Shown: positions 35,438-41,620 of the stretch, one piece after another
Numbering within the stretch: the first letter of the stretch is position 1
Layout: each line of letters starts with the position of its first letter
DNA from: a virus
DNA length: 41,620 nucleotides
Reading direction: 5' to 3' (one strand)
Virus genome (UHGV): UHGV-0179596
Notes under the pieces: generated by a model
Databases searched by the model: none
The model's input: only the letters and a program-made list of their open reading frames with translations
What the model was told of the DNA's origin: nothing
Made by a program: the position numbers and the translations under genes

Positions 35438-38400
35438 ATGGGTAAAGGCAGCAGTAAGGGGCATACCCCGCGCGAAGCGAAGGACAACCTGAAATCATCC
35501 CAGATGCTGAGCGTGATAGACGCCATCAGCGAAGGGCCGGTTGAAGGTCCGGTGGATGGATTAAAAAGCGTGCTGCTGAACAGTACGCCGGTGCTGGACA
35601 GTGAGGGGAATACCAATATATTCGGCGTCACGGTGGTGTTCCGGGCCGGTGAGCAGGAGCAGACTCCGCCGGAGGGATTTGAATCCTCCGGCTCCGAGAC
35701 GGTGCTCGGTACAGAAGTGAAATATGACACGCCGATCACCCGGACCATCACGTCGGCAAACATTGACCGTCTGCGTTTTACTTTCGGCGTGCAGGCACTG
35801 GTGGAAACCACCTCAAAGGGGGACAGGAATCCATCGGAAGTCCGCCTGCTGGTTCAGATTCAACGTAACGGTGGCTGGGTGACGGAAAAAGACATCACCA
35901 TTAAGGGCAAAACCACGTCGCAGTATCTGGACTCGGTGGTGGTGGATAACCTGCCGCCGCGCCCGTTTAATATCCGGATGCGCAGGATGACGCCGGACAG
36001 CACCACAGACCAGTTGCAGAACAAAACGCTCTGGTCGTCATACACCGAAATCATCGATGTGAAACAGTGCTACCCGAACACGGCACTGGTCGGCGTACAG
36101 GTGGACTCGGAGCAGTTCGGCAGCCAGCAGGTGAGCCGTAATTATCATCTTCGCGGGCGCATTCTGCAGGTGCCGTCGAACTATAACCCGCAGACGCGGC
36201 AATACAGCGGTATCTGGGACGGAACGTTTAAGCCAGCATACAGCAACAACATGGCCTGGTGTCTGTGGGATATGCTGACCCATCCGCGCTACGGCATGGG
36301 GAAACGTCTTGGTGCGGCAGATGTGGATAAATGGGCGCTGTATGTCATCGGCCAGAATTGCGACCAGTCAGTGCCGGACGGCTTTGGCGGCACGGAGCCG
36401 CGCATCACCTGTAATGCGTACCTGACCACACAGCGCAAGGCGTGGGATGTGCTCAGTGATTTTTGCTCGGCGATGCGCTGTATGCCGGTATGGAACGGGC
36501 AGACGCTGACATTCGTGCAGGACCGACCGTCGGATAAGGTGTGGACCTATAACCGCAGTAATGTGGTGATGCCGGATGATGGCGCGCCGTTCCGCTACAG
36601 CTTCAGCGCCCTGAAAGACCGCCATAATGCCGTTGAGGTGAACTGGATTGACCCGGATAACGGCTGGGAGACGGCGACAGAGCTTGTGGAGGACACGCAG
36701 GCCATTGCCCGTTACGGTCGTAACGTCACGAAGATGGATGCCTTTGGCTGTACCAGCCGGGGGCAGGCACACCGCGCCGGGCTGTGGCTGATTAAAACGG
36801 AGCTGCTGGAAACGCAGACCGTGGACTTCAGCGTGGGTGCAGAAGGGCTTCGCCATGTACCGGGCGATGTCATTGAAATCTGTGATGATGACTATGCGGG
36901 GATCAGCATCGGCGGGCGCGTGCTGGCGGTGAACAACCAGACGCGGACACTGACGCTCGACCGTGAAATCACGCTGCCATCCTCCGGCACCACGCTGATA
37001 AGCCTGGCTGACGGACAGGGGAATCCGGTCAGCGTGGAGGTCCAGTCCGTCACCGACGGCGTGAAGGTAAAAGTGAGCCGTGTTCCTGACGGCGTTGCAG
37101 AATACAGCGTGTGGGGGCTGAAGTTGCCAACGTTGCGCCAGCGCCTGTTCCGCTGTGTGAGTATCCGTGAGAACGATGACGGCACGTATGCCATCACTGC
37201 CGTGCAGCATGTACCGGAAAAAGAGGCCATCGTGGATAACGGGGCGCACTTTGACGGCGACCAGAGCGGCACGGTGAATGGTGTCACGCCGCCAGCGGTG
37301 CAGCACCTGACTGCCGAAGTCACCGCAGACAGCGGGGAATATCAGGTGCTGGCGCGCTGGGACACGCCGAAGGTGGTGAAGGGGGTGAGCTTTATGCTTC
37401 GCCTGACCGTGGCAGCGGATGACGGCAGTGAGCGGCTGGTCAGCACGGCCCGGACGACGGAAACCACATACCGCTTCAGGCAACTGGCGCTGGGGAACTA
37501 CAGGCTGACAGTCCGGGCGGTAAATGCGTGGGGGCAGCAGGGCGATCCGGCATCGGTATCGTTCCGGATTGCCGCACCGGCAGCGCCGTCGCAGATTGAG
37601 CTGACACCGGGGTATTTTCAGATAACCGCCACGCCGCATCTTGCGGTTTATGATCCGACGGTACAGTTTGAGTTCTGGTTCTCGGAAAAGCGGATTGCGG
37701 ATATCAGGCAGGTTGAAACCACAGCACGCTATCTTGGCACGGCGCTGTACTGGATAGCCGCCAGTATCAATATCAAACCGGGCCATGATTATTATTTTTA
37801 CATCCGCAGTGTGAACACCGTTGGCAAATCGGCATTTGTGGAGGCTGTTGGCCAGCCGAGTGATGATGCATCCGGCTATCTGAATTTTTTCAAAGGAGAG
37901 ATAGGGAAAACCCATCTGGCTCAGGAGTTGTGGACGCAGATTGATAACGGTCAGCTTGCGCCTGACCTGGCTGAAATCAGGACGTCCATTACGGGTGTCA
38001 GCAATGAAATCACGCAGACCGTCAATAAGAAACTGGAAGACCAGAGTGCAGCGATCCAGCAGATACAGAAGGTTCAGGTTGATACAAATAATAACCTGAA
38101 CAGCATGTGGGCTGTGAAGCTGCAGCAGATGCAGGACGGACGCCTTTATATCGCGGGTATTGGTGCCGGTGTTGAGAATACTCCTGACGGTATGCAGAGT
38201 CAGGTGCTGCTGGCGGCGGACAGGATTGCGATGATTAATCCTGCGAATGGCAACACAAAGCCGATGTTTGTTGGGCAGGGCGATCAGATATTCATGAACG
38301 AAGTGTTCCTGAAATATCTGACGGCTCCCACCATTACCAGCGGTGGCAATCCCCCAACGTTTTCACTGACACCTGATGGTCGACTTTCTGCGAAAAATGC

Positions 38401-38920
38401 GGATATCAGCGGTAACGTGAACGCGAACTCCGGGACGCTCAACAACGTCACGATTAATCAGAACTGTCGGATTCTGGGAAAACTGTCAGCTAACCAGATT
38501 GAAGGTGATATTGTCAAAACGGTGGGAAAAGCCTTTCCGAGAAATGGCAGTTATGCCAGCGGTACAATAACGGTCACTGTGTACGATGACCAGGCTTTTG
38601 ACCGTCAGATAGTAGTCCCCCCCGTTCTGTTTCGTGGGGGTAAGCATGAAAACTTCAACAGCAACAACCAACAGTCATACTGGTATTCAACCTGTAAGCT
38701 GCAGGTACTGAAGAACGGACAGGAAATCTTTCAGCAACCCGCGACGGATGTCAGCAGGGTATTTTCATCAGTCATTGATATGCCTGCCGGACACGGCCAT
38801 GTCACCCTGACTTTCAATGTTTCTTCATATGGTGCTAATAACTGGACGCCAACGACCAGTATCAGCGACCTTCTTGTTGTTGTGATGAAGAAATCTACAG
38901 CCGGTATCAGTATCAGTTGA
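35438..38920 (+). CDS. J: Central tail fiber / host specificity protein J
   Basis: 1160-aa ORF collinear with lambda gpJ for about 1000 residues; C-terminal receptor-binding part diverges in places. Confidence 0.95.
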
Positions 38921-38938
38921 ATTTTATAACCCAGATAC

Positions 38939-38967
38939 GGGCGCCAGAAATGGCGCCTTTTTTATTT
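38939..38967 (+). terminator. Intrinsic terminator after J
   Basis: Hairpin GGCGCCA-GAAA-TGGCGCC followed by T6 between J stop and the tail fiber start. Confidence 0.6.
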
Positions 38968-38978
38968 GTGGAGTGAAT

Positions 38979-41039
38979 ATGGCAGTACAGATTTCAGGCG
39001 TGCTGAAAGACGGTGCAGGAAAACCGATACAGAACTGCACCATTCAGCTCAAAGCAAAACGTAACAGCACCACGGTTGTGGTGAACACGGTGGCCTCAGA
39101 AAATCCGGATGAAGCCGGACGTTACAGCATGGATGTCGAGTATGGCCAGTACAGCGTTATCCTGCTGGTTGAAGGTTTTCCGCCTTCACATGCCGGGGCC
39201 ATCACCGTGTATGAGGATTCTAAGCCGGGGACATTGAATGATTTTCTGGGCGCTGCAACAGAAGATGATGTTCGTCCGGAGGCACTGTATCGTTTTGAAA
39301 AGATGGTGGAAGAGGTGGCACGCAACGCTGAAGCCGCCTCTCAGAGCGCAGCGGCAGCAAAGAAATCAGAAACAGCAGCGGCATCGTCCAGGAATGCGGC
39401 GAAAACATCAGAGACGAATGCAGGTAACAGCGCGAAAGCGGCAGCTTCTTCAAAAACAGCCGCACAAAACGCAGCAACAGCGGCAGAACGTTCAGAGACA
39501 AATGCCCGTGCGTCAGAAGAAGCCTCCGCAGACAGTGAAGAGGCTTCCCGCCGTAATGCAGAGTCAGCCGCTGAAAATGCCGGAGTCGCCACCACAAAAG
39601 CGCGGGAGGCCGCAGCAGACGCAACAAAGGCCGGGCAGAAAAAGGATGAGGCTCTGTCGGCAGCGACACGGGCTGAAAAGGCGGCAGACCGCGCAGAAGT
39701 CGCAGCGGAAGTGACTGCAGAGCCCTATGCGAATATAGTGCCGCCGCTGCCTGATGTGTGGATACCGTTTAACGATTCACTGGATATGATTGCGGGTTTT
39801 TCTCCGGGCTATAAAAAAATAGCTATTGGTGACGATGTGGTTCAGGTCGCCAGTGATAAACAGGTTAATTTCAGTCGCGCATCAACGGCAACATATATCA
39901 ACAAATCTGGCGAACTGAAAACGGCGGAAATTAATGAGCCGCGATTTGAGTGTGATGGCCTGCTTATTGAGGGACAAAGAACGAACTACATGCTCAATTC
40001 GGAAAGTCCAGCCAGCTGGGGGAAGTCATCAAACATGGATGTGCCCGAAACCGGGACAGATAGTTTTGGTTTTACTTATGGAAAGTTTGTCTGCAACGAT
40101 TCTCTGGTTGGGCAAACTTCGGCTATTAATATGGCATCAATTGCTGCAACAAAGTCAGTTGATGTCTCAGGCGATAACAAGTACGTGACAACCTCATGCC
40201 GTTTTAAAACAGAACGACAGGTAAGGTTACGTATACGGTTTGATAAGTATGATGGTAGTGCAACAACTTTTCTTGGCGATGCGTACATTGATACGCAAAC
40301 GCTTGAAATTAATATGACAGGTGGGGCTGCCGGCAGAATTACGGCACGAGTCAGGAAGGATAAGACCACAGGCTGGATTTTTGCAGAGGCAACGATTCAG
40401 GCAATTGATGGTGAGTTAAAAATAGGCTCTCAGATACAGTATTCTCCTGAGCGGGGTGGGGCAACAGTATCTGGTGACTATATTTATCTTGCCACCCCAC
40501 AAGTAGAGAATGGGCCGTGTGTATCATCATTTATTATTTCAGGAGGCAGCGCAACGACAAGAGCCAGTGATTTGGTTAGTATCCCCACCAGAAATAATCT
40601 TTATAAGTTACCATTTACTTTTTTACTTGAGATTCATAAAAACTGGGATATTGCACCAAACGCCGCACCCCGCGTGTGGGATATAGCAGCAGCCAATACC
40701 GGGCAATCAGCAATTGCAGCAATCAACAGAGGTAGTGGTAAGTTATATATGAGTCTGTCAAACCCTTCAGGCTTGTATGTTAATAGCGCAGCGACAGATG
40801 TATTTGCAGAGAAAACCACATTTGGATGTATTGCAAAAGCTGATGGTCACTTTCATGTGGTGACAAATGGTAAAGCGGTTAATGAAGTTTATTGTGAATA
40901 TAATGGTGTGACCGCTGATAAAAATATCCGATTTGGAGGGCAGACGAATACTGGAGAACGACATCTGTTTGGCCATATTCGCAATTTCCGCATATGGCAT
41001 AAAGAATTAAATGACAGGCAATTAAAAGAGGTCGTATGA
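38979..41039 (+). CDS. stf: Side tail fiber: lambda Stf-like N-terminus, Ala-rich repeat shaft, lectin-like (LamG/ConA-like) C-terminus
   Basis: 686-aa reading from MAVQISGVLKDGAGKPIQNCTIQLKAKRNSTTVVVNTV... (lambda Stf N-terminus); Ala/Ser/Glu-rich low-complexity shaft; C-terminus ends GHIRNFRIWHKELNDRQLKEVV, reminiscent of LamG-type jelly-roll domain endings. Confidence 0.85.
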   Translation: MAVQISGVLKDGAGKPIQNCTIQLKAKRNSTTVVVNTVASENPDEAGRYSMDVEYGQYSVILLVEGFPPSHAGAITVYEDSKPGTLNDFLGAATEDDVRPEALYRFEKMVEEVARNAEAASQSAAAAKKSETAAASSRNAAKTSETNAGNSAKAAASSKTAAQNAATAAERSETNARASEEASADSEEASRRNAESAAENAGVATTKAREAAADATKAGQKKDEALSAATRAEKAADRAEVAAEVTAEPYANIVPPLPDVWIPFNDSLDMIAGFSPGYKKIAIGDDVVQVASDKQVNFSRASTATYINKSGELKTAEINEPRFECDGLLIEGQRTNYMLNSESPASWGKSSNMDVPETGTDSFGFTYGKFVCNDSLVGQTSAINMASIAATKSVDVSGDNKYVTTSCRFKTERQVRLRIRFDKYDGSATTFLGDAYIDTQTLEINMTGGAAGRITARVRKDKTTGWIFAEATIQAIDGELKIGSQIQYSPERGGATVSGDYIYLATPQVENGPCVSSFIISGGSATTRASDLVSIPTRNNLYKLPFTFLLEIHKNWDIAPNAAPRVWDIAAANTGQSAIAAINRGSGKLYMSLSNPSGLYVNSAATDVFAEKTTFGCIAKADGHFHVVTNGKAVNEVYCEYNGVTADKNIRFGGQTNTGERHLFGHIRNFRIWHKELNDRQLKEVV

Positions 41040-41314
41040 AAGATTTAACTTTGAAGTTTCATGACAAACTGCAGTTTAAGGCCTTCCTGTCATCTCTTGA
41101 CTGGGAGGAGGATGAAGACCTCCAGAATAAACTGTTAGTCGATGAAATTGGTTTCACCTACACAGAAACAGGGGTAACAGAAGAGGGAGAACCTGTCTGT
41201 GTCCGGAATGACGGTTATTTTGTCAACATTCGCATTCTTGATGACTTGTTTGATGTTTCTGTATTCTCTGATTATGTCGTGGAGCTGGAAACACCGCTTC
41301 GGGAATGGAGCTGA
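41036..41314 (+). CDS. Hypothetical acidic protein downstream of stf
   Basis: 92-aa ORF whose ATG overlaps the stf stop (ATGA); no similarity to lambda Tfa recognised. Confidence 0.5.
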   Translation: MKDLTLKFHDKLQFKAFLSSLDWEEDEDLQNKLLVDEIGFTYTETGVTEEGEPVCVRNDGYFVNIRILDDLFDVSVFSDYVVELETPLREWS

Positions 41315-41326
41315 AAGGAGGAAATA

Positions 41327-41620
41327 ATGGATATAAGCCCCTTACTTCATGCGCTTTGTGCTGTGGCTGCGCAGATACTGGTTGGTCTTTTTACCGGAAA
41401 CTGGGCTTACGGAGCGATAGCCGGTTGTACGTTCTTCATTGCGCGTGAACATACCCAGGCAGAATATCGCTGGATTGAAATGTTCGGGCATGGCAAGCGA
41501 ATGAATATGCCGTGGTGGGGCGGTTTTGATCCGCGAGCTTGGGATGTGGCAAGCCTGATGGATTTTGCTGTGCCGGTGGTGGCGTGTCTGCTGGTCTGGC
41601 TGTTGGTTAATCGTGGGTGA
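41327..41620 (+). CDS. Hypothetical small membrane protein
   Basis: 97-aa ORF with SD AGGAGG; two hydrophobic segments (ALCAVAAQILVGLFTGNWAYGAIAGCTFFIA and FAVPVVACLLVWLLV); stop codon at the window edge. Confidence 0.55.
   Translation: MDISPLLHALCAVAAQILVGLFTGNWAYGAIAGCTFFIAREHTQAEYRWIEMFGHGKRMNMPWWGGFDPRAWDVASLMDFAVPVVACLLVWLLVNRG

Follow-up and report, generated by a model that had tools for sequence, protein, structure and literature searches.

The window analyzed here is a 41,620-nucleotide (nt) stretch of DNA from virus genome UHGV-0179596, and our subject is its side tail fiber gene, stf, together with two small downstream genes, o92 and o97. An earlier note, made from the letters alone, had singled out this locus for its lack of lom and tfa and for a fiber with a lectin-like end. 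According to our results, it is the side tail fiber locus of a phage 21-type lambdoid prophage, in which a side fiber of the lambda type carries another tip cassette and is accompanied by an accessory gene that also differs and is uncharacterized. The stf gene was already known and annotated, and its domains are already present in PHROGs and NCBIfam. As a whole, the locus is an ordinary mosaic, and the one new lead is an uncharacterized family of fiber partner genes, represented here by o92.

Gene order from J to o97

The region from 38800 to 41620 was 100% identical to the corresponding part of Escherichia phage 21 (OL657228) and of phage ev017, and the gene at 38979-41039 is labeled "side tail fiber" in the phage 21 record. 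The same region was matched at 100% in many E. coli chromosomes, for example, those of S88, UM146, NU14, ABU 83972, and ATCC 11775. At least 80% of the query region was found in 450 of 5,426 complete E. coli genomes, including many extraintestinal pathogenic E. coli (ExPEC)/B2 strains, and about 300 E. coli genomes carried it at an identity of at least 99%. This type of fiber is common in E. coli, and its receptor and partner gene are uncharacterized. The features of the locus are listed in Table 1.

Table 1. Features of the side tail fiber locus, with positions in the window
Feature	Position	Strand	Basis or annotation
J, central tail fiber/tip attachment protein, 1,160 amino acids (aa)	35438..38920	+	Full Pfam GpJ domain set; annotated in phage 21 as central tail fiber
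Predicted intrinsic terminator, GGGCGCCA/TGGCGCCT hairpin and T-run	38939..38968	+	Also annotated in OL657228
Ribosome-binding site (RBS) GGAG, 5 nt 5' of the stf ATG	38970..38973	+	Sequence; RBS annotated in phage 21; lambda stf context alike
stf, side tail fiber gene, 686 aa	38979..41039	+	PHROG 1419 "tail protein," E = 0; phage 21 annotation
Stf 1-131, lambda-type N-terminal attachment domain	38979..39371	+	PF08400, E = 1e-68
Stf 115-250, Ala-rich shaft (36% Ala, many E, S, and T)	39321..39728	+	Composition
Stf 253-559, start of the exchangeable distal module: conserved joint PLPDVWIPFNDSL... and GTA head-spike-fiber-type domain	39735..40655	+	
Stf 560-681, LamG/ConA-like domain at the end, varying more than any other part of the fiber	40656..41021	+	PF13385
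o92, 92-aa acidic alpha/beta protein	41036..41314	+	phrog_1361, function unknown; candidate accessory factor or chaperone
o97, 97-aa protein with two hydrophobic segments	41327..41620	+	Putative membrane protein with two transmembrane domains in phage 21

J and stf are separated by a 58-nt spacer. It contains a hairpin of 8 bp, 6 of them GC, at 38939-38958, which is followed by TTTTTTATTT, and the folding energy of the spacer was -22 kcal/mol (z = -4.0 versus shuffled sequences). With the hairpin also annotated in phage 21, the order proposed in the earlier note, in which J leads directly to a strong terminator and then to stf, was borne out. This spacer aligned to the one between lom and stf in lambda, with terminator, RBS, and ATG in a shared context; in lambda, a second hairpin separates J from lom. 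The terminator preceding stf should leave late expression unblocked, given the Q antitermination of late transcription in lambdoid phages. For the start of stf, we retained the ATG at 38979 and discounted the GTG at 38973 given by the list of open reading frames (ORFs), following the phage 21 annotation.

A tblastn search with lambda Lom against the whole window gave no match better than an E value of about 2, so lom is missing, as had been claimed. However, its absence is not notable, since 41 related loci with the same type of fiber carry a lom homologue between J and stf, at an identity of 42 to 46%. These relatives use the insertion point of the lambda lom moron, where the window has just a single terminator-RBS spacer. 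Judging from these loci, lom is a facultative insert, and its absence is one of two common states and is ordinary.

Architecture of Stf and its distal module

The attachment region of lambda Stf was retained, as the earlier note had it: besides the PF08400 match (Table 1), residues 1 to 158 were 74% identical to lambda orf-401, and a family profile matched the solved N terminus of the lambda tail fiber (9e7m/9mgh) in a profile search of the PDB. The shaft that follows had been described as Ala-rich and repetitive. Its composition agreed with the first term, and it was weakly similar to the Ala-rich region of lambda Stf, but the second term found little support, as neither a tandem repeat in the DNA (Tandem Repeats Finder) nor an internal repeat in the protein (self-BLAST) was detected in the shaft. 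In a relative from phage Tritos, the shaft was longer by about 100 residues.

The homology to lambda ended near residue 250 of Stf. The C terminus had no similarity to lambda orf-314 in BLASTP (best E value, 1.2), in line with the claim that it is unrelated to lambda Stf; the extent of the unrelated part was, however, about 435 residues (252 to 686) and not 300. Because the distal part differs, the receptor specificity should differ from that of lambda, as had been proposed.

A domain that had escaped the earlier note was found within this distal part. The NCBIfam model NF048003 (phage head spike fiber domain, GTA_spike_fiber) matched residues 329 to 529 (nt 39963 to 40565) with a score of 55.3 bits, above the cutoff of 36, and the scores of relatives ranged from 56 to 120 bits. 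Similarly, when the family profile was compared with the PDB, it matched chain 6tb9_F3, the head spike fiber Rcc01080 (GhsB) of the Rhodobacter capsulatus gene transfer agent (RcGTA), with an E value of 2.2e-7 over about 240 aligned residues. The RcGTA head spike fiber binds capsular polysaccharide, and its tagged fluorescent form attaches much better to capsulated than to capsule-less cells (PMC10218006). It is a single flexible subunit of 325 aa on the capsid spike, where an N-terminal Leu-Gly repeat anchors it to the pentameric base of the spike (PMC7296036). Thus, Rcc01080 and Stf have a homologous beta-rich domain, which in Rcc01080 belongs to a binder of a surface glycan (the capsule) on a phage-like particle. 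Unlike in Rcc01080, the domain in Stf is joined to a lambda-type tail fiber N terminus and shaft and is followed by a terminal LamG-like domain.

The terminal domain, residues 560 to 681, matched PF13385 (Laminin_G_3) with an E value of 5e-5 and scores of 23.9 and 25.1 bits; taken in isolation, the domain scored 27.3 bits, the cutoff being 27.6. It is a separate, more variable unit made up of the final 125 residues. All nine diverse homologues of the terminal domain matched Laminin_G_3 and no other family, with a best E value of 1e-10; PF13385 was also recorded in the fiber products of relatives, and the weak sequence matches of the terminal domain in the PDB were LamG-type proteins. The resemblance to LamG/ConA modules covers the terminal 120 residues, including a C-terminal strand of the form ...G.IRN.RIW...L.D.Q... 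The LamG/ConA-like signature reported earlier was thus recovered in the family, with a score for the window protein itself that falls just short of the curated threshold. In relatives with residues 251 to 555 at 84 to 87% identity, the terminal domain was only 37 to 42% identical.

We modeled residues 251 to 686 using AlphaFold2 with a 20-sequence alignment. The model was all-beta but poor, with a mean predicted local distance difference test (pLDDT) score of 49.9. When this low-confidence model was used in Foldseek, it consistently retrieved pairs of laminin LG domains, CBM40 modules that bind sialic acid, and HcN domains of botulinum toxin, with E values down to 2.6e-5 and a template modeling (TM) score of about 0.55, normalized to the CBM40 target. 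These jelly-roll matches are consistent with a lectin-like fold, and we take them as weak support for it.

Carbohydrate binding had been put forward in the earlier note, and it is plausible because the GTA_spike_fiber domain, which scored above its cutoff, is homologous to the capsule-binding fiber of RcGTA. It is reasonable to regard the tip of Stf as lectin-like and carbohydrate binding, a reading strengthened by the GTA homology; glycan binding is what we infer from the observed architecture and homologies. Alternatively, the distal module could be an enzyme from the ConA-like "lectin/glucanase" superfamily, such as a hydrolase, lyase, or esterase acting on glycans, and could degrade or modify a surface polysaccharide and not simply bind it. 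The superfamily of PF13385 includes glucanases, one of the Foldseek matches was a GH43 arabinanase, and a profile search gave a weak match to the chain of an SGNH esterase, although through the Ala-rich region. We consider an enzyme quite improbable, however, since the top structural matches were binding modules, the closest characterized relative binds capsule and has no activity reported for it (PMC10218006), and neither Pfam nor NCBIfam gave a match to a catalytic family.

o92 and the tip cassette

Downstream of stf, the window contains two genes that the earlier note did not mention, o92 and o97. The ATG of o92 overlaps the stop codon of stf (ATGA at 41036-41039). Its product has an isoelectric point of 4.1, and the dN/dS ratio of 0.22 to 0.36 indicates purifying selection. 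The structure of o92 was predicted with confidence (pLDDT, 90) as beta-alpha-alpha-beta4. Neither o92 nor o97 had a significant match in Pfam or NCBIfam (only subthreshold matches, with E values of 0.04 to 0.06) or any match in PADLOC, and PHROGs assigned them only to families of unknown function. o92 gave no alignment with lambda Tfa and no likeness, in sequence or fold, to the known fiber chaperones (Tfa/Caudo_TAP, gp38, gp57A, and the S74 domain). Its profile retrieved nothing meaningful among PDB sequences, and its structural neighbors were uninformative. Searches of the literature returned nothing specific on this fiber, its receptor, its combination of domains, the o92 family, or a matching chaperone.

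To describe the linkage of o92 to the fiber, we used 80 IMG/VR loci with the fiber module, of which 3 were left out as truncated or interrupted by an insertion sequence (IS). In all 77 intact loci, an o92 homologue begins 0 to 3 nt past the fiber stop codon. By profile searches, the o92 family comprises about 800 proteins, from Escherichia, Atlantibacter, Aeromonas, and Chromobacterium, all annotated as "hypothetical." Its distant members (27 to 35% identity) follow proteins that have the conserved joint, the GTA_spike_fiber domain, and a LamG_3 end. These distant pairs occur in a Mu-like baseplate operon (Atlantibacter), after a J-like gene (Chromobacterium), in Aeromonas, and on a metagenomic contig.

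The earlier note had suggested that the fiber may fold without a chaperone. Extended to the downstream genes, this would mean that a lectin-type tip folds free of helpers and that o92 and o97 are unrelated passengers carried along at the late operon's end, with functions, for example, in lysogenic conversion or exclusion. Such a fiber has a precedent in the RcGTA homologue, which consists of one flexible subunit rather than an intertwined trimer (PMC7296036), and beta-sandwich heads that fold independently may need no trimerization chaperone. o92 is unlike Tfa or any solved chaperone, its identity is separable from that of the distal domains, and the site after the tail fiber genes is a known site for morons and cargo, with sitABCD following in phage 21. 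But the stop/start overlap of o92 with stf is conserved, and the adjacency of fiber and o92 is kept in lambda-, P2-, and Mu-like tails and in four genera, even at 27 to 35% identity. Moreover, the Mu-like pair sits within a baseplate operon, which is no cargo site, and PADLOC gave no defense match. Because the pairing of the fiber with o92 is conserved, a translationally coupled o92 accompanying the module across phage types and genera, we do not accept folding without a chaperone, and passenger status for o92 seems unlikely to us.

Instead, we see in o92 the obvious candidate for an assembly factor dedicated to the distal module, or for an accessory subunit of it, that acts in place of Tfa, and we give this about an even chance. 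If it is such a factor, it could be a chaperone or a small distal subunit. More tentatively, and with the balance leaning somewhat against it, the o92 family may be an unrecognized class of accessory factor for tips made of GTA-spike-fiber and LamG domains, replacing Tfa in lambda-, P2-, and Mu-like phages, and fibers of this kind may end in three lectin heads, each folded on its own atop a helical stalk, as in collectins, and not in an intertwined trimer. The gene linkage and the cassette boundaries described below are observed; the role of o92 and the geometry of the trimer are what we infer.

The distal module and its partner gene behave as an exchangeable unit. Within the family, residues 251 to 555 of Stf and o97 were 84 to 100% identical, and the terminal domain (37 to 100%) and o92 (49 to 100%) varied; because the former are conserved and the latter vary, the variable unit is bounded by conserved flanks. 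o97, whose stop codon falls exactly at the edge of the window, was conserved at this level whatever the allele of the tip. It travels with the cassette in Escherichia, also in a P2-like context, and was absent from the Atlantibacter, Chromobacterium, and metagenomic loci. In a P2-like prophage, the same module, 86% identical from residue 252 onward, is fused to a P2-type fiber N terminus (PF12571), and the fiber gene is followed by o92, o97, and then a truncated Caudo_TAP fragment of 74 residues.

Cassettes made of a tip and a downstream accessory gene are known from lambda stf-tfa, P2 H-G, Mu S-U, and T4 gp37-gp38. The arrangement here is alike, a variable distal segment and a small downstream gene being swapped as a unit between conserved flanks, and this pattern of exchange was present in both lambda-like and P2-like fibers. 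It differs from the known cassettes in that the gene in the accessory position, for which that role is a candidate one, encodes an alpha/beta protein of 92 aa that is unrelated to theirs and did not match Caudo_TAP.

The claim that no tfa gene follows stf held up. A tblastn search with lambda Tfa found no match better than an E value of about 1 in the whole window, and only a relic of 20 codons was found beyond it in phage 21. This relic lies about 22 to 81 nt past the window (L001 8841-8900), with a stop codon before it and sitDCBA after it. It encodes ATEEETPLLEARKKYRVLL, which is found about 22 nt past the window end in both phage 21 and PhiR63_2 and is 80% identical to residues 156 to 175 of lambda Tfa. 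Among the 51 related loci that have sequence after o97, none had a full-length tfa, and 33 had a 3' relic of tfa of 20 to 39 codons about 22 nt after o97 (e.g., L003 and L090 5873-5989). The relics correspond to lambda Tfa residues 156 to 175/194, at 80 to 92% identity, and have no start codon. This relic looks like the scar of a cassette replacement.

Two further genes were seen near o92 in relatives. Many of them have a second fiber gene of about 0.7 to 1.1 kb between o92 and o97 (IMG/VR loci L049 to L086), which in phage Tritos encodes 346 aa (L006 5765-6805) and which is absent from the window. It contains the motif DRDLKDNIQVID..., which we take to resemble the intramolecular chaperone domains of other fibers. 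In Aeromonas, a small ORF with a CCxxHDxxY motif lies between the fiber gene and the o92 homologue (L094 5185-5415 and L093 5218-5496); this motif presumably resembles the catalytic motif of secreted phospholipase A2.

Proposed role of the fiber and the prophage around it

The reading that we favor, and hold to be probable, is that the locus encodes a glycan-binding side fiber of the lectin type, which is borne on a cassette and has o92 as its assembly or accessory partner. The lambda-like N-terminal domain would dock Stf on the tail tip, and the Ala-rich shaft, probably a helical trimer, would project the distal module. The GTA-type and LamG-type domains would then, most likely, bind a surface glycan such as lipopolysaccharide (LPS), capsule, or a similar polymer reversibly, and this binding would speed adsorption ahead of the engagement of LamB by J. 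LamB is the native receptor of phage 21 and is bound via J (bioRxiv 10.1101/2023.04.13.536812). o92 would aid the folding or assembly of Stf or would remain bound to it as a small subunit. The module would have arrived as a cassette with the coupled o92 and, in Escherichia, o97, and this cassette would have displaced the lambda-type C terminus of Stf and almost all of tfa, leaving the short scar of the tfa 3' end.

Compared with Stf/Tfa of Ur-lambda (orf-401/orf-314/orf-194), the fiber is alike in its position after J, the context of the upstream terminator and RBS, the 158 N-terminal residues, the Ala-rich shaft, and a presumed role as an accessory adsorption fiber. It differs in that the distal 435 residues are unrelated, the Tfa/Caudo_TAP (PF02413) gene is missing except for the 20-codon scar, and stf is coupled instead to a gene for a 92-aa protein from a different family. 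The tip of lambda Stf binds OmpC, as cited in 10.1101/2022.09.30.509847, whereas a glycan is expected as the receptor of the phage 21-type tip.

Several points weigh against the proposed role. The lectin-like fold is consistent with the profile matches and a weak Foldseek signal, which are its basis given a poor model, and the LamG score of the window protein was slightly below the Pfam cutoff. In Chromobacterium and Aeromonas, another gene lies between the fiber gene and the o92 homologue. In a prophage of E. ruysiae, the distal domains were about 35% identical, yet o92 was 91% identical, and o92 thus does not vary strictly together with the distal domains. The tip of Stf may also be dispensable for propagation, phages with an IS-interrupted stf having been deposited as isolates. 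Finally, the literature available to us yielded no experimental work on either this Stf or o92. A cognate covariation of the terminal domain with o92 (r = 0.99) was considered as well and was dropped as strong evidence, since few clades contribute to it and E. ruysiae is an exception.

The interrupted genes also bear on whether stf is active here or a functionless remnant, like the frameshifted stf of laboratory lambda PaPa. Apart from the deposited isolates, the studies on the host range of phage 21 map it to J, LamB, OmpC, and OmpF (bioRxiv 10.1101/2023.04.13.536812), as would be compatible with a remnant. Against this, the 686-aa ORF is intact and has an RBS, about 300 genomes carry the region at 99% identity or more, the Stf protein cluster numbers thousands of members, and the linked o92 is under purifying selection. 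We regard a remnant as very improbable and keep to a glycan-binding fiber.

An IS element with three ORFs interrupts the 3' end of stf in phage 1W (L004 6190-8606). It cuts off the LamG-like domain near residue 643 and is followed by o92 and o97. This insertion is a natural knockout of the tip in a deposited phage isolate, reminiscent of the lambda PaPa frameshift. In 3W, 4A7, and Lambda_4C10, the match likewise ends at position 40906 of the window, as in 1W, and continues at a second matching place.

With the ligand of this fiber known, it would be easier to explain and predict which hosts lambdoid and P2-like prophages can infect and to design lambda-based delivery particles, which already rely on swaps of the Stf tip. 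If o92 is indeed needed for assembly, engineered chimeras that use this tip must carry o92, and the locus would gain in interest should o92 prove to be a new class of fiber accessory factor.

Outside the fiber locus, the window consists of lambdoid prophage sequence, with the genes from int to Q, a porin gene, lysis genes, and head and tail genes. It was nearly identical to phage PhiR63_2 (99.9% at the fiber locus). By alignment to PhiR63_2 (L099 15787-16929), the minus strand encodes an OmpD/NmpC-type porin at about 15.1 to 16.3 kb of the window, between Q and the gene for the holin, and a bor homologue follows the lysis genes; among lambdoid morons, a porin gene and bor are typical. At L099 12357-12815, PhiR63_2 also carries a transposase of the IS200 family. 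There, the match was in two pieces, with the PhiR63_2 span 710 bp longer than that of the window, which is probably without this transposase.

Many IMG/VR prophage contigs (L007 to L035) stop at the same point, 584 nt past the stf match, at the o97 stop codon. Because so many contigs stop there, the window edge at 41620 is probably a predicted prophage boundary and not the true attR. The phage 21 prophage extends about 5.7 kb further, to attP. Directly after the fiber cassette, beyond the window, it carries on the opposite strand sitDCBA, an operon for an iron/manganese ATP-binding cassette (ABC) transporter (L001 8913-12362). According to the annotation of phage 21 and PhiR63_2, sitDCBA is virulence-associated cargo of this prophage family.

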